A stretch of 64,000 nt of DNA from Patescibacteria group bacterium (lineage in GTDB: Bacteria > Patescibacteriota > UBA1384 > JBAYJO01). Below the pieces are notes generated by a model, which saw only the letters and a program-made list of their open reading frames with translations, ran no database searches and was not told the origin of the DNA. Below are positions 157 to 55,632 of the stretch, piece after piece. A program made the translations under genes and the position numbers. The stretch covers positions 2,131 to 66,130 of the forward strand of contig JBAYJO010000003.1 in assembly GCA_041665085.1 (NCBI GenBank), in the 5' to 3' direction. Each line of letters opens with the position of its first letter. Within the stretch, counting starts at the first letter, position 1.

Positions 157-1749
157 TTAGGTGATTAATCTGCTGATCAATTCTTTAGCTTTTTCTATTG
201 AAATATGGGCAGTATTGGCGATTTCTTCAATTGAGGCTGTTTTTATATTTTCAACAGATCCGAAATGTTGGAGAAGAGATATTCTTTTTTTAGGTCCGAT
301 ACCTGATATTTCTTCAAGAGATGATTTCGGTTTTCGAAGCGACTTTTGAAAAGTAACAGCAAATCTATGAGCTTCATTTCTAATTCTTTGGAGTAAAAAC
401 AGGGTAGGCGAGAGAGTGGGAAGTATAATTGGTTCTTTTGAATTCGGAACAAAAATAAATTCAATTTTTTTTGCCATGGCGGCGATTGGAATATTTAAAT
501 CATATTTTTTAAGAATTGCTTTGCCGGCTGATAACTGACCCTTACCGCCATCAAGTAAAATAAGATCGGGGAGTGGCCAGAATTCTGATTTAGAATGGAT
601 TCCAGATCCGGATTGTCCTTCGGACTTCCGGTCTGGAATGACATTAGGATGGAGACTTCGCTTTGAGTCTGGAATGACAATGATAGATTGCTTTGTCGTT
701 CGCCTGTTGGCGGATTCTTTGCGATGACAAAAAGAGGAACTCGCAATGACAGAGGAGGATCTTGAAAATCGTCGATCAAGAATCTCGCGCATCGAGGCAA
801 CATCATTTTGAATATTTACTTTTTTAATTTTAAACTTTCGATATTCTGATTTATCTGATTCGCCTTCTGTAAAAACTATCATAGATCCGACAATATTTGT
901 GCTTCCTAAATTTGAAATATCAAAACATTCTATTCGGTGTGGAATAGATTTTAAATTTAATTCTTTTTTTAACTGATCAAGAGCTGACATATTTAATCTT
1001 TTTTCAGATTCGTTATTATCGCTTGAAAAGATAAAAGTGTCTGGTTGGTATTTTATTCTTTGAAGTATTGAAATTTGATCTCTTAAAATTTTTGCCAGTT
1101 CAAATTCTTCATTTTTTGAAGCAAGATTCATCTCACGCGATAAGTTGCGAATTGTTTTTTGAGATTTTGACGAGAGAAAATCAATTGCTCTTGCAACTTG
1201 TTTCGCATAAACTTCTTTTGATACTTTGCCTATGCAAGCATCTGTACATTTACCGATTAAATATCCTGAATATGGGCGATGATTGTGTTTAATGTGGCAG
1301 GTTCTGATGCCAAAAACTTGTTGCAAGACTCTGATTGTCTGGCGCATTGAAGAAGCGTTAGTATATGGACCAAAGTATTTTGCTCCATCACTTAATATTT
1401 TTCTGGCAATATGAATTCGAGGAAAATCTTCGTTGGTTAATTTAATGAGTGGGTAATTTTTATCATCTCTCATTTTAATGTTGTAATAGGGGTGATAGAG
1501 TTTGATTAAATTATTTTCAAGAATTAATGCTTCATTTGCTGACTTTGTTTTTATGAATTCGATATTATCGATTTGCTCTAGCATTGAAATATTTTTAAGC
1601 TCCGTTGGTTTTTGAAAATGGGATTTTATTCTATTTTTAATTGAAATTGCTTTTCCAACATAAATAATACGGTCGTTGGAATTTTTAAAAAGATAGACGC
1701 CGGTTTCATTTGGAAGCGATTTAATTATTTTTTTTATTTTATCTTTCAT
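157..1749 (-). CDS. uvrC: Excinuclease ABC subunit C (UvrC). The likely start is the internal Met at 'MKDKIKKIIKSLPNETGVYLF…', so the ORF-track start at 1794 is probably too far upstream. It carries a ~55-aa in-frame repeat-derived insertion.
   Basis: GIY-YIG N-terminus (…GVYLFKN…IIYVGKA…NRIKSHF). UvrBC-interaction region, RNase H-like 'DISNLGS…FWPLPDLILLDGGKGQ', and a C-terminal HhH. Nucleotides 600-765 are GC-rich and palindromic, and differ from the rest of the gene. Confidence 0.85.
   Translation of the reverse strand: MKDKIKKIIKSLPNETGVYLFKNSNDRIIYVGKAISIKNRIKSHFQKPTELKNISMLEQIDNIEFIKTKSANEALILENNLIKLYHPYYNIKMRDDKNYPLIKLTNEDFPRIHIARKILSDGAKYFGPYTNASSMRQTIRVLQQVFGIRTCHIKHNHRPYSGYLIGKCTDACIGKVSKEVYAKQVARAIDFLSSKSQKTIRNLSREMNLASKNEEFELAKILRDQISILQRIKYQPDTFIFSSDNNESEKRLNMSALDQLKKELNLKSIPHRIECFDISNLGSTNIVGSMIVFTEGESDKSEYRKFKIKKVNIQNDVASMREILDRRFSRSSSVIASSSFCHRKESANRRTTKQSIIVIPDSKRSLHPNVIPDRKSEGQSGSGIHSKSEFWPLPDLILLDGGKGQLSAGKAILKKYDLNIPIAAMAKKIEFIFVPNSKEPIILPTLSPTLFLLQRIRNEAHRFAVTFQKSLRKPKSSLEEISGIGPKKRISLLQHFGSVENIKTASIEEIANTAHISIEKAKELISRLIT
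600..765. repeat. Palindromic repeat element (GTCTGGAATGACA / TCGCAATGACA modules) inserted in-frame in uvrC.
   Basis: Its reverse complement carries 'tgtcattgcgag', 'aagcaatctatcat' and 'tgtcattccagac(c)gga' modules shared with the repeats at 18811-18880, 52849-53000 and 53451-53651. Local GC is well above the gene average. Confidence 0.7.
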
Positions 1750-9406: not shown

Positions 9407-11383
9407 TTAAAACTTAAATTTTCTTAATTCTTTGATTTCATCTCTGATTCTTGCTGCTGTTTCAAATTCCAAATGTTTGGCAGCTTCTCTCATGGCAATT
9501 GTTTTCTGTTTAATAATTTCCGGTACTTGCTCTAGATCTAAAACTAAATCTTCTGCTTTTTCTGCAATTTCTTCGTTTTTTTCATAAATTGAATATATTT
9601 CTTTTTTAATTGTTTGAGGTGTGATGTTGTGATCGGTATTATATTTTTGTTGGACTTTTCTTCTTTTTTCCGTGACTGAAATTGCTTTTTTCATTGAATC
9701 TGTGATTGTATCTCCATATAATATCACTCTTCCGGCTGAATTTCTAGCTGCTCGGCCAATTGTTTGAATAAGTGATCTTTCTGATCTTAAAAATCCTTCT
9801 TTATCTGCATCTAGAATTGCAACAAGTGAAACTTCGGGCAAATCTAGCCCTTCTCTTAAAAGATTAATTCCGACCAAGACATCAAATTCGCCTTTTCTAA
9901 GTCCGGCTAAGATTTCAAGTCTTTCGAGTGTATCTACTTCGGAGTGAATATATCTTGTTTTTACTCCTGCTTCGGTTAAAAATTCAGCAATATCTTCAGA
10001 CAAGGATTTTGTAAGTGTGGTTACTAAAATTCTTTCTTTTTTAACCTGTCTTAATCTAATTTCATGCAAGATATCATCGATTTGATTTTTTGTTGGACGA
10101 ACTTCAATTTCAGGATCAACAAGACCGGTTGGACGAATGACTTGTTCCACAATTTGAGTTGAGTTTTCCTCTTCAAAATGACTTGGTGTGGCTGATGTAA
10201 AAATTGCTTGAGAAACTTTTTTTTCAAATTCGTCAAATTTTAAAGGTCTATTATCAAGGGCTGATGGAAGTCTAAATCCATGTTCAACTAAAACTTCTTT
10301 TCTGGCGCGATCACCATTATGCATTCCGTTGATTTGAGGTATGGTAATGTGTGATTCATCGATTATGGTTAAAAAATCTGCAGGCCCGCCTTCAGTCGAG
10401 GCAGGAAAATAATCAAGTAAAGTTGCAGGAGGAGATCCGGCTGGACGATCTGACAAAATTCTTGAATAATTTTCAATACCATTACAATAACCAATATTTT
10501 CAAGCATTTCCATATCAAATTTTGTGCGCTGCTCCAGTCTTTGAGCTTCGAGCAATTTATTATGTGATTTTAAATCTTTAAGCCTTGATTCTAATTCAGA
10601 TTTTATTTCATTTAATGCTTTTTTGAGTTTTTGCGGTGAGATTAAAAAATGTTTTGCTGGGAAAATTGTAATATATCCAATATTTTCTGATTGTCGTCTT
10701 GAAATCGGATCAACTTCAAAAATATTAATTATTTTATTTCCCTGAAGTTCTACGCGAACAATTACATTTGCGTTAACCGGCATAATTTCAATTACTTCTC
10801 CTTTAGCTTTGAATGTTCCGCGTGTCAAATTTACATCGTTTCTCACAAAAAGCATTTCTATCAATTTTTTAATAATTTCATCTCGTGAAATTTTTTGAGC
10901 TGTGTAAATATTTAAAACCGTTTGTTTATATTCAATAGGGGATCCAAGACCATAAATGCAAGAAACGGAGGCAATTATAATTACGTCTTTGCGAGAAAGT
11001 AATGCTGAAGTGGCAGCATGTCGAAGTCTTTCAATTTCGTCATTTATTGTTGCTTCTTTCTCAATATAAGTGTCGGTTGTGGGTAAATATGCTTCCGGCT
11101 GATAGTAATCATAGTATGAAACAAAATATTCTACGGCATTTTTTGGAAAAAATTCGCGATATTCAGCGCAAAGTTGAGCCGCTAGAGTTTTATTTGGAGC
11201 AATTACAAGTGTTGGCTTTTGAATTTGGGCAATAATATTTGCAGCAGTGAATGTTTTTCCTGATCCGGTTACACCTAAAAGAGTCTGGTATTTTTGTTTT
11301 TCTTTGAGCCCTTTAACCAGCTTTTTTATTGCTTGTATTTGATCGCCTTTTGGCAAATATTTTTGTGATAATTCAAATTTCAT
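9407..11383 (-). CDS. uvrB: Excinuclease ABC subunit B (UvrB).
   Basis: 658 aa, helicase motifs ([12 protein letters not shown]), UvrB beta-hairpin region and C-terminal UVR domain '[13 protein letters not shown]'. Start is 2 nt downstream of the uvrA stop. Confidence 0.95.
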
Positions 11384-11507: not shown

Positions 11508-12440
11508 ATGTATATGTCGAAAAGAAAAACATTTAATGTGGCTGTTTATTCAATTGGGTTATTATTTCTTTTGGGGGCGATTTCATTTTCCTCATATAAT
11601 TTATTCTACAAAGCAGATGAACTTCCTTCTGCAAATTTGGCTCTAACTACTTCAAGCGCGGGTGGACAGGTTTCCAATAATGCTAATTTTAATTTATATG
11701 TCAATTTTATCCCCAGTGGAAATACAATTTGTGCTATTAGTTTCACAATAAATTATCCAACTGATACTATTCAATTAGCAGGTGAACCGGTTCTTGGAGA
11801 AGTATACGATTTGGCAGTAGAGGCAGATACTAGCGTCCCCGGTATTATTAATTACGCCCTTGGAGTAAAAGGATGCAGCACTAGCAGCGCTCAACTTTTA
11901 ACGGTTCCGTTAAAAGCGATTTCGCTTGGAACAGCAAATATTACAATATCAAGCTCCGAAGCGGTTACTGATATTGATGGTCAAGTTGTGCCGTTTTCCA
12001 ACGTGCCGACGGTTATTAATATTATTCCTTTGGCTAAGCCGGTAGTAACAACATCCAAAACTTTTACTTACAAGTCTACTTTGTCATTAGCCGGTACTAA
12101 ATCAGCTGAATTAACCAAGATAGTGATCGGTGGAGTTACAACAGATGTTTCCGCTATTGCAACAACTTGGGCTGTATCTGTTAATTTAACGATTGGAAAT
12201 AATAATTTATCAGTTGTTGGAAAGGATAACTTAAATAATTTAAGCGACGCGGCAAGTTATAGTATTGTCAGAAGAAAAATGGCTGATGCGGATAATGATG
12301 GTTTTGTTAATATTAATGATTTTGGATCATTGATGTTAAATTGGAAAAAAACAGGAGCTGACAATGTTGCTGATTTCAACGAAGATTTAACAGTTGATAT
12401 TAAAGATTTTGGTAATTTGATGCTAAATTGGAATAAATAG
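11508..12440 (+). CDS. Cohesin-like plus dockerin protein (adaptor-type scaffoldin component) with an N-terminal TM or signal anchor.
   Basis: Cohesin-like 'NFNLYVNFIPSGNTICAISFTINYPTDTIQLAG…LLTVPLKAISLGTANITIS'. C-terminal duplicated dockerin segments 'DADNDGFVNINDFGSLMLNW' and 'DFNEDLTVDIKDFGNLMLNW'. Strong RBS AAGGAGG. Confidence 0.7.
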   Translation: MYMSKRKTFNVAVYSIGLLFLLGAISFSSYNLFYKADELPSANLALTTSSAGGQVSNNANFNLYVNFIPSGNTICAISFTINYPTDTIQLAGEPVLGEVYDLAVEADTSVPGIINYALGVKGCSTSSAQLLTVPLKAISLGTANITISSSEAVTDIDGQVVPFSNVPTVINIIPLAKPVVTTSKTFTYKSTLSLAGTKSAELTKIVIGGVTTDVSAIATTWAVSVNLTIGNNNLSVVGKDNLNNLSDAASYSIVRRKMADADNDGFVNINDFGSLMLNWKKTGADNVADFNEDLTVDIKDFGNLMLNWNK

Positions 12441-15213: not shown

Positions 15214-16518
15214 CTACCCCGAGTTAGTCTGGCCTGTGCCAGCCAATACTGCTGGTTGTGATTCTTCAGCAGTCAGTTCGTCGATAGCGTCAAGTAGACG
15301 CCGAGTTTGTCGAGTCAGTCGTTTGACTTTCTTAGGATCAAGACTGATCAGGTGTCGCGCGAGTTTGGCTAGATGTGGTAGACCAATTCCCTCGAGACTA
15401 TTGATTACCATTTGGACTTGGCCAAGACATGAGTCAAGATGATCTAGTACTTTACCAAGTCTCTTACGGTTTTCAGGGTCGGTCATAGGTGAATCAGCTG
15501 TTGATAATAGGTGTTGTTCGCAGAGCCACTTCATTCCTTCGAATGTTAGTATAATGCCCTGCAAGCCATCGCCTGTCAAGCTCTTGATAGCATTGCGAAA
15601 TGCCTTTTCAGTATCAGCTTGGACAGAATAATCCATTGCTGCAGCTAAGTCCATTTGGACTAGACTGGCGATTCTTTCAGTGATGCGTCTGCGGTACTTT
15701 GGAATCGACAATCGTGGCCCTTGGCTTATGACATAACGCAATTCAGTTTCTAGCGTTTTTTCGCCGAACTTATGATCTGCCAATCGAGCCATCTCTATGG
15801 CAAAACCATACTTCATCTTGCTGTTTTCAACAGCTTTGCGCAAACGATCCGGCAAGCCGCAGAACTTGATCATGCGACTGACTTTGTTAGGGGAGCAACC
15901 AAGTTCTTTGGCCAATTTGGCATACGAGAATTGCGCATCTCTCTTGCGGTACATCTTAAGCATTGATTCGACAAAGTATGCCTCCTCATGTGCCGGTACT
16001 GTACCGTGGATGTTTTCGGAGACTTGAATGCATCTGGCGTAGAAAGGATCAGGATTGACATAGATGTCGCACCACCTGATTGCGCTTTTTGGAAACTGTA
16101 TCTCAAAGCAGTGGCATTCAGATGATTCTTCTCCATCAACCTTGCAACGCGAGCATCCTTTTTCACGGAGTTCGATCATTGCTCGAATTCTACATTCTCC
16201 TGCGATCAAGACATAGTATTTGCCTTTTCGCGCGTAGGATTTGTAGTCATCAAACTCGAGGGTTGCTCCATGAAGGTCTGCCGAGAAAAGCAAATACTCG
16301 ATGAACTTTGCTTTGCTGGTAAAAACAGCCAGCTTAATGTTGGTCAAAAGTCCCATTCGGCCGATATTCTCAGCCAAGTCAGTGATCTTGAGGGGATCAA
16401 AGGTGTGCCTTTCCTGTGGTAAGATAATCACATCTTCGATCGGGATTTCTCGACTTCGCATGAGCGATTCGAACTGTAGTCTCTCAACAACATTGTTTTC
16501 TGGTCCAGACTTTGTCAT
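15214..16518 (-). CDS. ParB/Srx-like nuclease-domain protein with an HTH domain.
   Basis: 'YVLIAGECRIRAM' resembles the ParB 'LIAGERRxRA' box. HTH 'SYAKLAKELGCSPNKVSRMIKF'. ATG at 16518 is preceded by AAAGGGGGTGA. GC ~50%. Confidence 0.65.
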   Translation of the reverse strand: MTKSGPENNVVERLQFESLMRSREIPIEDVIILPQERHTFDPLKITDLAENIGRMGLLTNIKLAVFTSKAKFIEYLLFSADLHGATLEFDDYKSYARKGKYYVLIAGECRIRAMIELREKGCSRCKVDGEESSECHCFEIQFPKSAIRWCDIYVNPDPFYARCIQVSENIHGTVPAHEEAYFVESMLKMYRKRDAQFSYAKLAKELGCSPNKVSRMIKFCGLPDRLRKAVENSKMKYGFAIEMARLADHKFGEKTLETELRYVISQGPRLSIPKYRRRITERIASLVQMDLAAAMDYSVQADTEKAFRNAIKSLTGDGLQGIILTFEGMKWLCEQHLLSTADSPMTDPENRKRLGKVLDHLDSCLGQVQMVINSLEGIGLPHLAKLARHLISLDPKKVKRLTRQTRRLLDAIDELTAEESQPAVLAGTGQTNSG

Positions 16519-18810: not shown

Positions 18811-18880
18811 TGTCATCCTGAACTTGATTCAGGATCTAATTATTATTTATATAGATTCCGGATCAAGTCCGGAATGACAT
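18811..18880. repeat. Intergenic palindromic repeat (two hairpin modules), same family as the uvrC insert.
   Basis: 'tgtcatcctgaacttgattcaggatc' and 'attccggatcaagtccggaatgacat'. Lies between the permease stop and the ATPase start. Confidence 0.6.
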
Positions 18881-27528: not shown

Positions 27529-27588
27529 AACATTTTGCGTGTCAATAAACCAATGTCTTGTTAAAAAATAGCTTTAGCTTTAGCTTTA

Positions 27589-28354
27589 GGGGACGCTTCA
27601 CTTTCACTCAATGCTTTAGCGATAACTTAAATTTTGGTATAGTATAGTTATGCCACGACAACCAAGATTTCTTCCACCGGACAACTACTATCATATAATG
27701 AACCGCGGTAATAACGGCCAGCAGATTTTTACTTGTGATGAAGATTATCAATATTACCTCGACAAATTATTAGAACTTAAATATGAACATCCATTTAATC
27801 TCTCTCACTATTGTCTGATGCCTACTCATGTTCATTTTTTACTAAAAATAATCAAAGAAACTGATTTTTCCATCTTTTCAAAACGGTTGAACTTAAGTTA
27901 CGCTATTTATTTTAAAAGAAACTATGGCTCTATAGGCCATTTCTGGCAGGGTAGGTTTAAAAGCCAGTTAATAAGCAATGATATCTATCTTATGCAGTGC
28001 GGAAAATATATTGAATTAAATCCAGTCAGAGCAGACATGATAACAATGCCAGAAGACTATTCCTGGTCAAGCTATCAATATTATGCCTTTGGTAAAAAGA
28101 ACAGTTTGATTACCGAAGATATTTTTTACAATGAATTTGGAAATGATCAAAAAGAAAGGCAAAAAAATTATTCCCAATTTATGATTGATGAGGCTATTGC
28201 GACTACGATGAGTAGTAAGAAGCTAGCTATCGGAGCTAAAGATTTCGTGTATAATATAAATAGAAAAAATAAATACCACTTAGAAAATAAAGATGCTTCC
28301 TACCATTCAAAAAATACTTATCGCTAAAGTATTGAGTGAAAGTGAAGCGTCCCC
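27589..28354 (+). mobile_element. REP-associated tyrosine transposase (RAYT)/IS200-like element bounded by 33-bp perfect inverted repeats.
   Basis: Left inverted repeat 27589-27621 'ggggacgcttcactttcactcaatgctttagcg' and right inverted repeat 28322-28354 (its exact reverse complement). Short tandem repeats (tagcttt)x3 and (ccccgaaag)x2 lie just outside. Confidence 0.75.
27650..28327 (+). CDS. Y1 HUH tyrosine transposase (RAYT / TnpA-REP family).
   Basis: 'YHIMNRGNNGQQIF…HYCLMPTHVHFLLK…' has the HxH (HVH) motif, and there is a downstream Tyr region ('YSWSSYQYY'). Confidence 0.75.
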   Translation: MPRQPRFLPPDNYYHIMNRGNNGQQIFTCDEDYQYYLDKLLELKYEHPFNLSHYCLMPTHVHFLLKIIKETDFSIFSKRLNLSYAIYFKRNYGSIGHFWQGRFKSQLISNDIYLMQCGKYIELNPVRADMITMPEDYSWSSYQYYAFGKKNSLITEDIFYNEFGNDQKERQKNYSQFMIDEAIATTMSSKKLAIGAKDFVYNINRKNKYHLENKDASYHSKNTYR

Positions 28355-28397
28355 GAAAGTCCCCGAAAGACTATGATTTAGAGGGCGGGTATAATAC

Positions 28398-50160: not shown

Positions 50161-51225
50161 TTGCCGGTTTTATCTGAAAGAATGAAATCATTACTTGACC
50201 AAGTACTGACGCGAAATGCCAGCGATTTACATATGATGGTTGGAACAGCGCCTATTTTAAGGATAGATGGCAAATTAGCAACTATTCCGGATGAAGCGGT
50301 GCTTTCGGAAGCTGATTGCGAAGAACTGATTGGCAGTATGTTGCTAGAAACACATATGGAAATTTTAAAACATCGAAAAGAGTTGGATTTTTCATTTGGA
50401 TATAAAGATTTAAGATTTAGAACTAATGTTTATTATCAAAAAGGAACTCTTGCGGCTTCGCTTCGTTCTATTTCCAGTGTAATTAGAAGTTTTGCTGAAC
50501 TTGGACTCCCGCCGATAATTGAAAGATTTGCAACTAATTCCCAAGGTTTTGTTCTGATTACCGGTCCAACCGGACATGGGAAAACAACTACGCTTGCATC
50601 AATGATTGAGCATATTAATATTACTCGAAGTGAGCACATAGTTACAATTGAAGATCCGATTGAATATGTATTTAATAATAAAAAAAGTATTATCTCGCAA
50701 CGAGAGGTTGGTTCAGATACAAATACATTTGCTCGTGCTTTAAGGGCTTCGCTTCGTGAAGATCCGAATGTTGTTTTAATTGGTGAAATGAGAGATCTTG
50801 AAACAATCGAAACCGCGCTTACTATCGCTGAAACAGGACATTTGGTTTTTGCAACGCTTCATACCAATAGCGCTTCTCAAACTGCCGATCGAATTATTAA
50901 TGTTTTTCCTCCACACCAACAACAACAAGTCAGACAACAACTTGCATCGGTTCTTTTGGGTATTGTTTCACAAAGATTAATGCCTCGGGTGCAGGGTGGA
51001 AGAATTGTTGCTTCTGAAATAATGCTTGCATCAACTGCTGTTAGGAGTTTAATTCGCGAAGGTAAAACATATCAATTGCCTAATGTGATTCAAACTTCTG
51101 CTTCCGAAGGAATGATTAGTCTAGATAAGGTTTTGGCTGAACTTGTAAGTAAAGGTGAGATAACAATTGATGATGCTTTGACTTGGGCAACTGATCCAAA
51201 AGCATTTAAAATGATGATTTACTAG
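50161..51225 (+). CDS. pilT: Twitching-motility ATPase PilT.
   Basis: 'ASDLHMMVG', 'VLITGPTGHGKTTTLASM', 'VVLIGEMRDLETI', 'GHLVFATLHTN'. The TTG start at 50161 lies 3-4 nt after AAGGAGGG. An alternative ATG is at 50182. Confidence 0.85.
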   Translation: MPVLSERMKSLLDQVLTRNASDLHMMVGTAPILRIDGKLATIPDEAVLSEADCEELIGSMLLETHMEILKHRKELDFSFGYKDLRFRTNVYYQKGTLAASLRSISSVIRSFAELGLPPIIERFATNSQGFVLITGPTGHGKTTTLASMIEHINITRSEHIVTIEDPIEYVFNNKKSIISQREVGSDTNTFARALRASLREDPNVVLIGEMRDLETIETALTIAETGHLVFATLHTNSASQTADRIINVFPPHQQQQVRQQLASVLLGIVSQRLMPRVQGGRIVASEIMLASTAVRSLIREGKTYQLPNVIQTSASEGMISLDKVLAELVSKGEITIDDALTWATDPKAFKMMIY

Positions 51226-51283
51226 AGATAGCTAAAAACTTAAAACTGAAAGATTAAAATCACAACTTAAAATTTATATTAAA

Positions 51284-51646
51284 ATGATTAAAACAAATAC
51301 TGATTTAAAATCACGTTCATACAAATTCTCATTAGATATTATTAGTTTTATTCAAAATATATCAAATTCTAAAATAAGTTTAGTTTTGATAAATCAGCTA
51401 TTAAGGTCAGCTACTTCAATAGGTGCTAATATTTTTGAAGCAAAATCATCTTCATCAAAAAGAGATTTTATTAAGTTTTTTGAAATTTCATTAAAATCTG
51501 CTAATGAAACAGAATATTGGTTAAATTTATTCAAAGATAGTAGGATCAGTAGCGTCAAAGAGGTTGATATTTTACTTGATGAATTAGTTGAATTAAGCAA
51601 AATGATTGCCGCAAGTTTATTAACAATGAAAAACAAAAGGAATTAA
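51284..51646 (+). CDS. Four-helix-bundle protein ('23S rRNA intervening-sequence protein' family, homologous to the DGR Avd protein).
   Basis: 120 aa, 'SYKFSLDIISFIQNI…LINQLLRSATSIGANIFEAKSSSSKRDFIKFFEISLKSANETEYWL' matches the family pattern. Flanked by AT-rich (T)TAAAACT-type repeats. Confidence 0.65.
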   Translation: MIKTNTDLKSRSYKFSLDIISFIQNISNSKISLVLINQLLRSATSIGANIFEAKSSSSKRDFIKFFEISLKSANETEYWLNLFKDSRISSVKEVDILLDELVELSKMIAASLLTMKNKRN

Positions 51647-51649
51647 AAA

Positions 51650-51687
51650 GGATTTAAGTTTTAAACTGTGGATTTAAGTTTTAAACT
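51650..51687. repeat. Tandem direct repeat 2 x 'ggatttaagttttaaact', followed by 'ttaaacttta aactttaaat'.
   Basis: Read directly. Sits between the four-helix-bundle gene and pilC. Confidence 0.6.
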
Positions 51688-51708
51688 TTAAACTTTAAAT
51701 TAAAAACA

Positions 51709-52779
51709 ATGGATAATATAATTCATTACATAAATAAATACATTAAGCATGTGAGCGTTAAGGAAAAGGCGTTTTTTTCTCGTCAGTTGGCAACCATGCT
51801 TAGCTCTGGCTTGCCATTGACCCAGTCGCTATATATTTTAGCTGTTCAGAGTACCAATGAATATTTTAAAAGTATTTTAAATGATGTGATTTTTGATCTT
51901 GAGGCTGGATATAATTTTCACAATGCTCTTTCAAAACACCCTAAAGTATTTAATAAAGTTTTTGTCAGTCTTGTTAAGGCAGGCGAATCATCCGGTAAAT
52001 TAGAGCAAATTTTAGATGATTTAGCTACGCAAATTGAAAATGACGCTGCTTTTTCATCAAAAATAAAAGCTGCTTTGCTTTATCCGGTTTTTATTTTAGT
52101 TGTATTAATTGGAGTTTCTGTAATGATGATGGTTAAGGTTATTCCTCAACTCGAGGATGTTTTTAAAGAATCCAATGCCAAATTACCATGGATTACTACA
52201 ACTTTAATGTCCATGAGTCGTTTTATGGTTCATTATTGGTGGATTTGTATTTTTGCAATTGTAGGCTTGGTTATTTTGGTTCGAGTTTTGCTTAAAACAG
52301 ATGGTTTTGAATATTTTTGGAATAAATTTAAAATTAAAGGTCCGATTATTGGAAAAATTGTTACCGGTATTTATATGCATAGATTTACCAATACTTTAAG
52401 TTTACTTACATCATCAGGAATTCCAATTATTGAATCTTTGGATATTGTGGGCGATGTGATGAATAATCGCATTTATATTGAAGAGCTGCAAAATGTGGCT
52501 GTTCAAGTAGAGCGAGGTGTTCCGATATCTGTGCCTTTAAGTAAAAATTCAAATTTTCCGCTCATTGTTTCGCAGATGATTATGGTGGGGGAACAAACTG
52601 GAAAATTAGATAAAGTGCTAAAGGGGCTTGCAAAATATTATTATGAAGAAACCGATAATAAGATCAAAGGTATTTCGAGTCTTTTTGAGCCGGTTATGAT
52701 TGTTTTTATTGGTGGAGGAGTAGCATTTTTGGTTTTTGCGATTTTAATGCCGATATACAACCTAGCCCAGATTCAGTAA
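51709..52779 (+). CDS. pilC: Type IV pilus inner-membrane platform protein PilC (GspF family).
   Basis: Two GspF repeats ('FSRQLATMLSSGLPLTQSL' and 'FTNTLSLLTSSGIPIIESL') and 3 TM. Confidence 0.85.
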   Translation: MDNIIHYINKYIKHVSVKEKAFFSRQLATMLSSGLPLTQSLYILAVQSTNEYFKSILNDVIFDLEAGYNFHNALSKHPKVFNKVFVSLVKAGESSGKLEQILDDLATQIENDAAFSSKIKAALLYPVFILVVLIGVSVMMMVKVIPQLEDVFKESNAKLPWITTTLMSMSRFMVHYWWICIFAIVGLVILVRVLLKTDGFEYFWNKFKIKGPIIGKIVTGIYMHRFTNTLSLLTSSGIPIIESLDIVGDVMNNRIYIEELQNVAVQVERGVPISVPLSKNSNFPLIVSQMIMVGEQTGKLDKVLKGLAKYYYEETDNKIKGISSLFEPVMIVFIGGGVAFLVFAILMPIYNLAQIQ

Positions 52780-52848
52780 ATAGTATTGAGTATTTAGTAT
52801 TGGGTATTGAGTATAAAAAATAATTTGTAAAGCTTAAAGTCAAACTTT

Positions 52849-53000
52849 GTCATTGCGAGGTGTTTCCCTTTCCGTCATTGCGCCTGCCCGCCTTGGGAGG
52901 GAGGTCATCCGAAGCAATCTATCATATACAGATCGCCACAGCGCTGACGCTTCGCGATGACTACTTCTGTCATTCCAGCGTAGGCTGGAATCCAGAAGCA
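52849..53000. repeat. Composite palindromic repeat, copy A of a ~150-bp direct repeat.
   Basis: 'gtcattgcgaggtgtttccctttccgtcattgcgcctgcccgccttgggagggaggtcatccgaagcaatctatcatatacagatcgccacagcgctgacgcttcgcgatgactacttctgtcattccagcgtaggctggaatccagaagca'. Confidence 0.8.
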
Positions 53001-53035
53001 TTGATTTTGCAAAGAAATAAAATTAAACTTAAAGT

Positions 53036-53446
53036 ATGAAGAAAAAAGATTTTACAATTGATGATTTAGCAGTTATGGTGCAAAGTGGTTTTTTGGAGTT
53101 AAGAGATGAGATGCATGACGGATTTAATTCCCTTGATAAGAAAATTGACAATGAAGTGGGTAATCTTAGATCTGAAATGCAAGAAGGTTTTAATGAGGCT
53201 AGTAAGGAATTGCATAATGAAATAGACAAATTAAGAACCGAGATGCACGATGAGTTTAGGCGAGTTCACGAAGAGATAAGTGTATTAAAAGAGAGAATCG
53301 AATCCTTGGAAAACAGAATTAAGGATGATTTTAGTGTTTATGATGATGAAATAAGCGAGTTTCGTCGAAGAATCGATATGTTGGAAAAAGAGGTTGCAAG
53401 ATTAAAAAAGGATAATCCGTACATTCCAAAAAGGACTGTCCTTTAA
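53036..53446 (+). CDS. Coiled-coil protein (136 aa) with an N-terminal 'TIDDLAVMVQSGFLEL' motif. Paralog of 54522-54869.
   Basis: Repetitive 'LR.EM.EGF.E' heptad-like units. RBS absent or weak. Bracketed by the direct repeats. Confidence 0.55.
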   Translation: MKKKDFTIDDLAVMVQSGFLELRDEMHDGFNSLDKKIDNEVGNLRSEMQEGFNEASKELHNEIDKLRTEMHDEFRRVHEEISVLKERIESLENRIKDDFSVYDDEISEFRRRIDMLEKEVARLKKDNPYIPKRTVL

Positions 53447-53450
53447 ATAA

Positions 53451-53651
53451 GTCATTGCGAGGTTGTTTCCCATTGGTCGCTTTGGAAACAGGCTCTGTCA
53501 TTGCGAGGTGTTTCCCTTTCCGTCATTGCGCCTGCCCGCCTTGGGAGGGAGGTCATCCGAAGCAATCTATTATCATATACAGATCGCCACAGCGCTGACG
53601 CTTCGCGATGACTACCTCTGTCATTCTAGCGCAGGCTAGAATCCAGAAGCA
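53451..53651. repeat. Composite palindromic repeat, copy B. About 97% identical to copy A over ~150 bp, plus an extra 5' module.
   Basis: Nucleotides 53498-53651 align with 52849-53000 with ~5 mismatches and 1 indel. The extra 'gtcattgcgaggttgtttcccattggtcgctttggaaacaggctc' hairpin module sits at the 5' end. Confidence 0.8.
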
Positions 53652-53796
53652 ATCCCACGAGTTATCCCCAGTTTTGATTATGTCTGAAAGATAGTATTAT
53701 ATAGATAATAAATATTAATTATATCCTTTGTTTGAGTAGGTCGATCAGGGGATAGTATGTTTATTAAGTCGATTATTCATATTAAGGAGGTTTAAA

Positions 53797-54309
53797 ATGA
53801 GAAAAATTAAAGGTTTCACACTTATTGAACTTTTGGTTGTGATTGCCATTATTGGTATTCTAGCAGCCATGATTTTGGTAGCTCTTGGTGGCGCACGAGC
53901 CAAAGCACGAGATGCCACGAGAAAGTCAGATTTAAGATCGGTAAAGACAGCTTTAGAAATGTTTGCTACAGATGATCCAGCAGGTAAGTATTCAACAGCA
54001 ACTGTTAATATAACAAGTAGCTTTTTGGTATCAGGTGGATATATGAAAGTTGCGCCTACTGAGAAAAAATGGACTACATCACTATATGCTTATCTTACCG
54101 ATGCTAGCGCGTCTAACTATGTTCTTGCTGCTTTATTGGAAAATCAATCAGATCCTGGAATAAATGGTGTATTAAATACATTGCCTACTGGTTCTACTTG
54201 GATAGCTGCAACCCCAACAGCTATTGCAGCATCAACTAACACAAATTGGAGTGACAAAACAGAAGCTCCTGCAGACGGAAATTATAATTATTATTTAGGT
54301 AATAATTAA
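53797..54309 (+). CDS. pilA: Type IVa major pilin (PilA-like).
   Basis: Class III signal '[24 protein letters not shown]' with Gly(-1)/Phe(+1)/Glu(+5). RBS AAGGAGG. Confidence 0.85.
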
Positions 54310-54400
54310 TAGTATTTTAAGCTAAAGCTATATAAGAATACCTTGTCTTGCTGATGAGGTATTTTTATATTTATACTTAGAGGTAGAGGACGCATCACTT

Positions 54401-54424
54401 CTGCCTGCCGTCAGGCAGGTTTTA
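54401..54424 (+). terminator. Intrinsic terminator after the major pilin gene.
   Basis: 'ctgcctgcc gtc aggcaggt' plus TTTT. An additional AT-rich hairpin plus T-run lies 40 nt upstream. Confidence 0.65.
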
Positions 54425-54521
54425 ACCTGTTATATTCCATAAGCTATTAGATATTGTTTTATTGTCTTTTTAAATAAATAATTGTTGCTATAATATAGAT
54501 AAGAAGTAAAAAAGGAGAAGG

Positions 54522-54869
54522 GTGGCAAAAACAACAATTGATGATTTGGCAATAATGGTTCAGAAAGGTTTTCTGGAGATAAACGATAGGTTTAATGATT
54601 TTGATGAAAGGTTCAATCAGGTTGATGCAAGATTTGATCGCATTGAAGCTCGTCTTGATCGTGTGGAAAAACGCCTTGATCATATCGAAGCTCGTCTTGA
54701 TTTGATTGAAACCGATGTTGCAATTATCAAAAAAGATGTTGCTAGTATAAAAACTCGTCTTGATGCGACGGGTCAAAGAGATTCCGAAGACATTGAAGTT
54801 TTGTCAAGAGATATGCAGAAAGCGGAGCTTCGTTTAGATAAACTGGAAAAGCAGTGTTATGGCAAATGA
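54522..54869 (+). CDS. Coiled-coil protein (115 aa), paralog of 53036-53446. GTG start. The 3' end overlaps pilD by 11 nt.
   Basis: 'TIDDLAIMVQKGFLEI' then 11-residue repeats 'ARFDRIEARLDRVEKRLDHIEARLDLIETD'. RBS AAGGAGAAGG. Confidence 0.6.
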   Translation: MAKTTIDDLAIMVQKGFLEINDRFNDFDERFNQVDARFDRIEARLDRVEKRLDHIEARLDLIETDVAIIKKDVASIKTRLDATGQRDSEDIEVLSRDMQKAELRLDKLEKQCYGK

Positions 54870-55632
54870 TATTTTTTTCAATTTAATAATATTTATCTTC
54901 GGGCTCTGTATCGGGTCGTTTTTAAATGTGGTAGCTTTGAGATTTCCGGAATTTGTCTCGATTGCAACTACCCGAAGCCACTGTCCTTCATGCAAGAAAA
55001 ATCTCAAATGGTATGATCTTTTTCCTTTGTTCAGTTTTTTGTTTTTATGGGGTAAATGTCGATATTGCAAAGTTAAAATATCATGGCAATATCCTTTGGT
55101 TGAACTAGCGACCGGAATAATTACACTTGGCGTAATATATTTTTTCGGATTTACTTTTCAAAGCATTATTTTAATTCTTTTTTCTTGGATTTTGATAATA
55201 ATTTCAATTTTTGATTTGGAATCAATGGAGATTCCCGAATTTTTTCTGCGCATGGGGATAATATTTGCATTAATTTATCTTGTCTTTGGTTATTTTAATT
55301 TTGGTTATAATACGGATTTGTTATCTGCCATATATGGCGTATTGGTTTTTGCCGGCGTGCCGCTATTTATTTATCTTATTACAAAAGGCAAGGGGATGGG
55401 GGAAGGGGATTGGAAAATTGGATTTTCTCTTGGTTTGATTTTGGGTTTTCCACAGGCAGTTGTTGGATTTATTTTTTCAGTAGTTATCGGATCTTCGGTC
55501 GGCTTGATTTTAATAGCTTTAAAAATAAAATCTTTAAAAAGCGCTATCCCATTTGGTCCCTTTCTTGTGTTGGGATTTTTTATTGCATTATTTTGGGGAG
55601 AATATTTATGGCGGGTGTATTTCGGTTTATGA
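54859..55632 (+). CDS. pilD: Prepilin peptidase PilD (A24 family).
   Basis: N-terminal CxxC…CxxC ('CPSCKK…CRYCK'), catalytic Asp regions ('IFDLE', 'GMGEGDWK'), 8 TM. Confidence 0.85.
   Translation: MANDIFFNLIIFIFGLCIGSFLNVVALRFPEFVSIATTRSHCPSCKKNLKWYDLFPLFSFLFLWGKCRYCKVKISWQYPLVELATGIITLGVIYFFGFTFQSIILILFSWILIIISIFDLESMEIPEFFLRMGIIFALIYLVFGYFNFGYNTDLLSAIYGVLVFAGVPLFIYLITKGKGMGEGDWKIGFSLGLILGFPQAVVGFIFSVVIGSSVGLILIALKIKSLKSAIPFGPFLVLGFFIALFWGEYLWRVYFGL

Follow-up and report, generated by a model that had tools for sequence, protein, structure and literature searches.

CGTC-tagged REP sequences are built from an unpaired CGTC, TGTC or CCTC tag, a stem of 8–9 bp starting with AT, a loop of 4–5 nt, and a CCA-like tail (Di Nocera 2013, PMC3733652). 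They form inverted dimers, occur as in-frame copies in DNA-repair genes, and have no dedicated transposase (PMC3733652). Neisseria dRS3 (CGTC-1) and Rickettsia RPE-6/RPE-4 have been equated with families of CGTC-tagged REPs, and the superfamily was reported from five phyla, with CPR not among them (PMC3733652). CGTC hairpins are also known under the names NTS, used in Neisseria, and SRM, used in general (Chenal 2025, PMC11893778). NTS hairpins flank ssnA, a small GIY-YIG gene, and SsnA binds the hairpin as single-stranded DNA only, does not act on RNA, and cleaves the tagged strand alone, a few bases upstream (PMC11893778). An NTS-gene-NTS arrangement in transforming DNA lowered integration in Neisseria (PMC11893778). 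For an SRM, a cognate small single-domain GIY-YIG (cd10448) gene, usually itself flanked by the motif, is expected in the same genome, and Patescibacteria are unmentioned in the same paper (PMC11893778).

Here, we analysed a 64,000-nucleotide stretch of DNA from a Patescibacteria group bacterium, hereafter the window, in which two composite repeats enclose a small coiled-coil gene, ORF136, within a type IV pilus operon (Table 1). The genomes of Patescibacteria are very small, and these bacteria are believed to depend on DNA uptake driven by pili. We conclude that the repeats are mosaics of the known, very widespread CGTC-tagged REP/SRM hairpins, and this identity is well supported. The first-pass annotation of the window had grasped the anatomy of the repeats but did not recognise the known cross-phylum superfamily (CGTC-tagged REP/SRM) to which they belong, and this recognition shifts the likeliest explanation of the locus.

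The near-identical direct repeats that had been described around ORF136 are real. Two copies of 153 and 156 nt, both on the forward strand and 648–651 nt apart from start to start, share 97.4% identity over the ungapped columns of the core. In the pairwise alignment, they differ by four substitutions (left to right: 52965 T>C, 52976 C>T, 52981 T>C, and 52987 G>A) and by one 3-nt indel (TAT, in the AT-rich spacer). Their G+C content of 53–54% compares with 34.8% for the window. The description of each copy as a chain of hairpins also holds: RNA folding, which had been proposed as a check, gave better folds than shuffled sequences for both composite repeats (z −3.9 and −2.9), and the terminal hairpins folded better than shuffles as single-stranded DNA (z −6.9 and −4.6). 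The same arrangement is present base for base in ENA ERZ27249449 (112-kb contig) and JGI 3300037810 (3.3-kb contig), and an assembly artefact of one pipeline could thus be rejected, because two assemblies carry it identically. No further copy of the composite repeat was found in the 64-kb window or in the next 9.8 kb of the source contig. Rfam at gathering thresholds returned only tRNAs, and no family for the repeats, for the window and nine element-carrying loci. The literal repeat sequence gave only chance primer matches in the literature, where we also found nothing on palindromic elements in Patescibacteria. For annotation purposes, the ORFs of 53–59 aa that overlap the composite repeats are spurious.

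Table 1. Repeat units, hairpins, and associated genes in the window. Positions are counted from the first nucleotide of the window.
Feature	Position	Strand	Description
Diverged unit cluster	~598-750	-	in frame inside uvrC; ~57 extra residues in the RNase H-like domain
Tail-to-tail pair of simple tagged hairpins	18812-18878		GTCATCCTGAACTTGATTCAGGATC + inverted GTCATTCCGGACTTGATCCGGAATC
Left composite repeat	52848-53000	+	inverted unit pair, 6-nt linker, canonical tagged hairpin
Unit A	52849-52919	+	GTC-ATTGC-GAGG ... CGAA-GCAAT-C; head/tail regex with complementary closing pairs
Nested unit in unit A	52874-52919	+	GTCATTGCGCC...GGTCATCCGAAGCAATC; CGTC precedes the nested unit at 52873
AT-rich spacer between units A and B	52920-52930		11 nt
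Unit B, inverted	52931-52961	-	GTC-ATCGC-GAAG ... GTG-GCGAT-C
Left canonical hairpin	52968-52995	+	TGTC, ATTCCAGC, GTAG, GCTGGAAT, CCAG; 6 nt past unit B
ORF136	53036-53446	+	136 aa, all coiled-coil, between the repeat copies
Extra half-unit	53451-53495	+	GTCATTGCGAGG plus hairpin TGTTTCC...GGAAACA
Right composite repeat	53496-53651	+	unit pair 53497-53612, linker 53613-53618, hairpin 53619-53646
Right canonical hairpin, variant	53619-53646	+	TGTC, ATTCTAGC, GCAG, GCTAGAAT, CCAG
ORF115, ORF136 paralog	54522-54869	+	115 aa; Shine-Dalgarno-like site; overlaps the prepilin peptidase gene start

Units A and B, together with the spacer between them, make up a tail-to-tail heterodimer of GTCAT(T/C)GCGA(G/A)G units; the unit calls were aligned with 56 family representatives. 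An extra half-unit next to the right copy had been overlooked in the first-pass annotation. Its ATTGC can pair with GCAAT at 53649–53653, across the right copy, so that an older unit seems to enclose the right composite. Two of the substitutions between the copies, C>T at 52976 and G>A at 52987, fall on both sides of one hairpin base pair, and the hairpin has therefore been kept since the two copies diverged.

The terminal hairpins display the features of CGTC-tagged REPs one after the other. The tag is TGTC in both (52968–52971 and 53619–53622), and the stems, ATTCCAGC/GCTGGAAT and ATTCTAGC/GCTAGAAT, comprise 8 bp each, start with AT, and are predicted to form hairpins in single-stranded DNA. 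The loops are GTAG and GCAG, and a CCA tail follows in both copies. We also searched the 64 kb of the window with the SRM pattern HGTCWYN(0-2)YYVSBRHN(0-5)WNVSBRGN(0-2)RNCYNB (Chenal 2025, PMC11893778). It had exactly two matches, 52968–52995 and 53619–53646, both of them the terminal hairpins, compared with 0.04 expected by chance (mean of 100 dinucleotide shuffles). Of the 28 positions of the NTS consensus, the left hairpin fits 24 and the right one 23. Units of the GTCATTGCGAG type have no match to the SRM pattern, which the terminal hairpin alone matches. In units of the ATTGCGAG type, the stem is reduced to a closing stem of 5 bp, and the 8–9 bp stem is absent in that form.

Two more clusters of related units in the window had gone unnoticed before (Table 1). 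The diverged cluster inside uvrC is read through in frame, which fits the habit of CGTC repeats reported for DNA-repair genes (PMC3733652). The RNase H-like domain of this UvrC has 204 residues vs 159 positions in the profile, and the extra segment should be annotated as repeat-encoded. The second cluster, the pair of simple tagged hairpins, occupies the entire spacer between two co-directional genes. Tagged-unit sites occur in this genome at low density, with four in 73.8 kb.

Set against the known CGTC-tagged REPs, the locus shares the tag, the AT-starting stem, the 4-nt loop, the CCA tail, and the inverted dimers of two different units, as well as in-frame copies in DNA-repair genes and the lack of an adjacent transposase. 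However, the known families have simple stems of 8–9 bp, whereas the units here combine the 5-bp closing stem with conserved internal-loop bases and a variable inner hairpin. The locus also resembles Neisseria intergenic mosaic elements (NIMEs), which are likewise mosaic arrays of tagged hairpins and short repeats, intergenic, near surface or pilus genes, and with nested and partial units. In contrast to NIMEs, the locus has no more than a tiny array of two 150-nt mosaics, units are few in the genome, and there is no sign of a role in sequence exchange. As for the features of MITEs, the inverted ends GTCATTGCGAGG and CTTCGCGATGAC are present, two copies occur in 74 kb, and no target-site duplication was found at the borders of either repeat copy, nor any other footprint that would reveal the origin of the second one.

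The architecture of the unit pair is distributed over many phyla. The combination GTCATTGCGAGG-N75-105-CTTCGCGATGAC gave 133 matches in 109 stretches from more than 15 phyla among species-representative genomes, where about 0.1 would be expected. Internal blocks that the search did not force were conserved, with G[CA]AATC in 124 and GATCGC[CG] in 112 of the 133 matches, and the closing bases of the central stem were fully complementary in 33 members vs 9.2 in shuffles. The hosts include Oscillospiraceae/Faecousia, Opitutales, Chloroflexi, Actinobacteria, Chlorobiota, and Acidobacteriota, together with three CPR lineages, namely Saccharibacteria, Gracilibacteria, and Daviesbacteria. Two Holosporaceae genomes contain dozens of unit-pair copies, some of them in tandem arrays, and the architecture reaches high copy numbers in Oscillospiraceae genomes, too. 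Exact copies of the simple hairpin GTCATTCCAGCGNAGGCTGGAATCC are present in IMG/VR contigs with 43–62% G+C, where they are oriented either way relative to the neighbouring genes.

Such units repeatedly flank genes of the Ssn type. A small GIY-YIG gene, 46–56% identical across phyla, is located between inverted units in CPR (L004), Oscillospiraceae (L037), and Alphaproteobacteria (L117), and between two whole elements in Holosporaceae (L036). GIY-YIG homologs flanked by tagged units of the host's own kind were also found in Azospirillum lipoferum (between sufB and sufC) and Sinorhizobium meliloti, and likewise in Novosphingobium aromaticivorans, Neisseria gonorrhoeae, Planktothrix, and two viral contigs. 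This association of GIY-YIG genes with CGTC repeats reproduces the published Ssn/SRM link and is not new. The published SRM pattern, on the other hand, misses a large class of units of the ATTGCGAG type found on either side of Ssn-like genes in several phyla. The pilus operon of L004 contains its ssn-like gene between the pilin and peptidase genes, with copies of a 132-nt direct repeat (95% identical, built of tagged units) on both sides. L004 is a second case of a gene bracketed by unit-built direct repeats.

The locus in the window therefore shares with the SRM/NTS-SsnA system a terminal hairpin that fits the SRM pattern, a tag that orients the hairpin, and the repeat-gene-repeat configuration, and a homologous small GIY-YIG gene sits among such units in the pilus operon of the related CPR locus L004. 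It differs from that system in three respects. First, tblastn searches with four homologs detected no Ssn homolog in the 73.8 kb of the genome that were read (the window and 9.8 kb beyond). Second, most of each repeat is made up of units of the ATTGCGAG type with long variable inserts, outside the SRM pattern. Third, the host belongs to Patescibacteria, a phylum that the description of that system does not mention.

The pilus operon around the repeats, recognised as such in the first-pass annotation, comprises pilB, pilT, a gene of the 23S-rRNA-IVP family, pilC, and the genes for pilin, prepilin peptidase, and pseudopilins, with the repeats and ORF136 placed between pilC and the pilin gene. 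ORF136 has a native composition (33.6% G+C) and, as pilB and pilC, no Shine-Dalgarno-like site. Its paralog ORF115 (30% identity, E 8e-11) indeed has no flanking repeats, as had been observed. A homolog search with ORF136 returned nothing; searches with ORF115 and with a profile of the two paralogs recovered a diffuse family of coiled-coil proteins of 85–150 aa. The three family members that we inspected were found in unrelated contexts with no tagged units, and nothing specific was seen that would tie the family to the repeats, so that the gene itself offers no explanation.

Comparison with related operons indicates that ORF136 is not a constant component. The closest relative found, L003 (PilC 75% identical), has an otherwise collinear operon that lacks the IVP gene, ORF136, and ORF115, and its spacer between pilC and the pilin gene contains neither a tagged unit nor a solo repeat. 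In three more distant relatives, pilC is directly followed by the pilin gene. L004 alone has a 136-aa coiled-coil gene at this place, which is nearer to ORF115 (35% identity) than to ORF136. Because ORF136 is absent from four of the five related operons, it looks like an accessory gene. Genes for DprA and RecR lie a few kb downstream, and the organism therefore probably processes incoming single-stranded DNA.

The differences between the two copies are distributed unevenly. All four substitutions are confined to the last 36 nt, and the first 117 nt have none, the indel apart (P about 0.003), implying that the two parts of the repeat differ in age. The unit pair appears to have been copied, possibly recently, beside two older hairpins that had slightly diverged; alternatively, gene conversion might have homogenised the 117-nt part alone. 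We consider it likely that the repeats are near-identical CGTC/SRM mosaics, either selfish or domesticated, which might be a target of a single-stranded DNA nuclease in a repeat-gene-repeat configuration. According to this explanation, the repeats would be elements acting at the level of DNA that spread or were homogenised locally, and the two copies would form the known configuration around the accessory coiled-coil gene. If the genome encodes a cognate Ssn, the forward strand would be cut near 52962–52967 and 53613–53618 when the locus becomes single-stranded, and the cutting would modulate recombination around ORF136. Functional statements of this kind draw on experiments in Neisseria, and any function of the repeats at this locus, which we infer from there, is not well supported.

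The enclosed gene could also be part of an excisable or duplicable cassette, as had been suggested from the direct repeats. RecA-type recombination between the repeats might delete or amplify ORF136, leaving one repeat, or a circle consisting of ORF136 and one repeat might have integrated at a resident repeat. The 153 nt of direct homology with 97% identity make such an event physically plausible, and the accessory nature of ORF136, missing in most of the related operons, together with a different small gene bracketed likewise in L004, points in the same direction. Nevertheless, we find this reading unlikely. Comparison with related genomes, as had been proposed, showed that ORF136 is absent from L003 but revealed no strain without the cassette and no one-repeat product of recombination, a solo repeat being missing from this closest relative. 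The cassette is retained in the ENA contig and the JGI contig of the strain alike, and we found no variant contig. A pattern for the deletion junction had no match in metagenome contigs, which is weak evidence as this strain is absent from the collection. For a 20-mer of the composite, the metagenome contigs yielded a single chance match plus a related unit from a different organism, a similarly weak result for a collection without the JGI contig of the strain. Moreover, the uneven divergence makes it less likely that all 153 nt were duplicated or integrated in one event.

Still less likely, in our judgement, is an element acting at the RNA level in the operon, such as a 3' stabiliser, a processing site, or a partial terminator in the pilB-pilT-pilC transcript that would decouple pilC from the pilin gene, which is highly expressed. 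Both clusters form good RNA folds, the positions used by the outer stem of the unit pair are G-U-compatible on the forward strand, and REP/BIME clusters have been credited with such roles in other bacteria (PMC3733652). However, no single RNA strand is favoured, because a mismatch in the middle stem reads A-C on the forward strand and G-T on the other. The hairpin unit is found elsewhere in either orientation relative to genes, units also occur inside a coding region (uvrC), and SsnA is inactive on RNA (PMC11893778). The idea of the first-pass annotation that the repeats serve as terminators or insulators between pilC and pilA was not borne out, as neither a terminator-like site nor a T run follows the hairpins and the orientation of the units varies elsewhere. 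An intrinsic terminator was rejected by a scan of 51200–55000, which placed terminator-like sites after the pilin gene but in neither of the repeats.

The inverted unit pair also resembles a REPIN, and as in the REPIN/RAYT system (REPtron), it might be the non-autonomous partner of a single-copy nuclease gene with the same flanking units. It is very improbable, however, that a REP-associated tyrosine transposase mobilises the repeats as REP doublets. A Y1 transposase gene at 27650–28327 does match the NCBIfam model of REP-associated tyrosine transposases with 64.9 bits, below the cut-off of 80, but it carries 42-nt terminal inverted repeats of its own that bear no relation to the GTCAT units and are confined, within the window, to this gene. 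The tags here are (C/T)GTC and not GTAG, the sole GTAG in the repeat being a hairpin loop, the enzyme would be of the GIY-YIG rather than the HUH Y1 type, and CGTC repeats are not associated with RAYT genes (PMC3733652). An integron-type gene cassette with attC sites, brought to mind by a small ORF that has no promoter and is enclosed by directly repeated imperfect palindromes of similar size (130–150 nt), is hardly credible given that the core sites RYYYAAC and GTTRRRY are missing from both strands of both copies, that no integrase is among the called genes across the window, that there is no array, and that a related cluster lies in frame inside a gene, uvrC.

If our preferred reading of the repeats as CGTC/SRM mosaics in a repeat-gene-repeat configuration is right, both the SRM/CGTC-REP superfamily and this configuration extend to Patescibacteria. 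With two oriented hairpins around one gene, the locus represents a compact substrate that could be used to probe the effect of Ssn on recombination outside Neisseria. To our knowledge, no mobility mechanism has yet been shown for CGTC/SRM repeats. The identical 117-nt unit pair lies 6 nt upstream of the two older, diverged SRM hairpins, which is the Ssn cut zone by analogy. As a speculation to which we assign little probability, the position of the unit pair might be the footprint of copying targeted to the cut site, a process by which CGTC/SRM repeats could move, and in CPR, the mosaics acting with Ssn might mark or protect small accessory genes of the competence-pilus operon, or shuttle them.

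In the pilus operon of a related CPR genome (L004), a gene for a small GIY-YIG nuclease resembling Ssn is flanked by GTCATTGCGAG units in inverted orientation and is enclosed by a 132-nt direct repeat, the two copies of which (10566–10697 and 11147–11278) are 95% identical. Further spacers of the same operon are filled with unit arrays (12205–12276 and 15560–15782). Ssn-like genes in other genomes are accompanied by hairpin units as well: those in L037 (Oscillospiraceae), L117 (Alphaproteobacteria), and two further loci, L135 and L136, are flanked by ATTGCGAG-type units, which the published search pattern for the Ssn-related motif (Chenal et al. 2025, PMC11893778) does not match, and the gene on the Azospirillum plasmid has one directly oriented GTCATCCCCGCGAAGGCGGGGATCC hairpin dimer on either side.

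Coordinates of the features discussed (window positions unless another sequence is named)
Feature	Position	Strand	Context
Ssn-like GIY-YIG gene (98 aa) and surroundings	L004 (GCA_030647355.1), 10433–11278		Pilus operon
Ssn-like GIY-YIG gene	L139 (Azospirillum lipoferum 4B plasmid AZO_p3), 254909–256390		Between sufB and sufC
Tagged hairpin unit cluster	598–750	minus	Inside uvrC (157–1794)
Two different simple tagged hairpins, tail-to-tail	18812–18878		Fill a 90-nt spacer between two co-directional genes
Y1 transposase gene (IS200-like, RAYT-like; 225 aa)	27650–28327		With its inverted repeats, 27584–28359
23S-rRNA-intervening-sequence-family gene	51284–51689 (including tandem 20-mer)		Between pilT and pilC; 24% G+C
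Repeat-overlapping ORFs (53–59 aa)	52860–53039; 52840–53001; 53463–53639	second, minus	

We also identified a ~105-nt element of such ATTGCGAG-type units, with the layout GTCATTGCGAGG ... GGCAATCC ... GGATCGCCACAG ... CTTCGCGATGAC, among matches in genome contigs (L018–L126), where its internal blocks are conserved across more than 15 phyla. Two MAGs of Holosporaceae, as well as Oscillospiraceae genomes, carry it at high copy number.

Within the window, the tagged units are also found away from the pilus operon. The cluster in uvrC is translated in frame, contributing ~57 extra residues (SSSVIASSSFCHRKES...SGIHSKSEF) to the RNase H-like domain of UvrC, which is reminiscent of the Rickettsia palindromic elements and of the REP-decorated repair genes described by Di Nocera et al. 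(PMC3733652). The tail-to-tail hairpin pair has an ssDNA folding z of −4.4. The Y1 transposase gene is flanked by its own 42-nt inverted repeats (27584–27625 and 28318–28359, 95% complementary), which are unrelated to the GTCAT units and have no other copies in the window.

In the pilus operon of the window, the 23S-rRNA-intervening-sequence-family gene, followed by a tandem 20-mer (51650–51689), is missing from the operon of the closest relative. The three short ORFs overlapping the repeats, one of which is annotated as a gene in the JGI contig, represent translated repeat sequence and are probably spurious. ORF136 and its paralog ORF115 share 75% DNA identity over their first ~22 codons (53054–53118 versus 54534–54598), with the motif TIDDLAxMVQxGFLE, beyond which the proteins have diverged, leaving an overall identity of ~30%. 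A few kilobases 3′ of the operon, on the source contig past the window end (L142, 16775–20841), lie dprA, topA, and recR, which is consistent with uptake and processing of single-stranded DNA by the organism.
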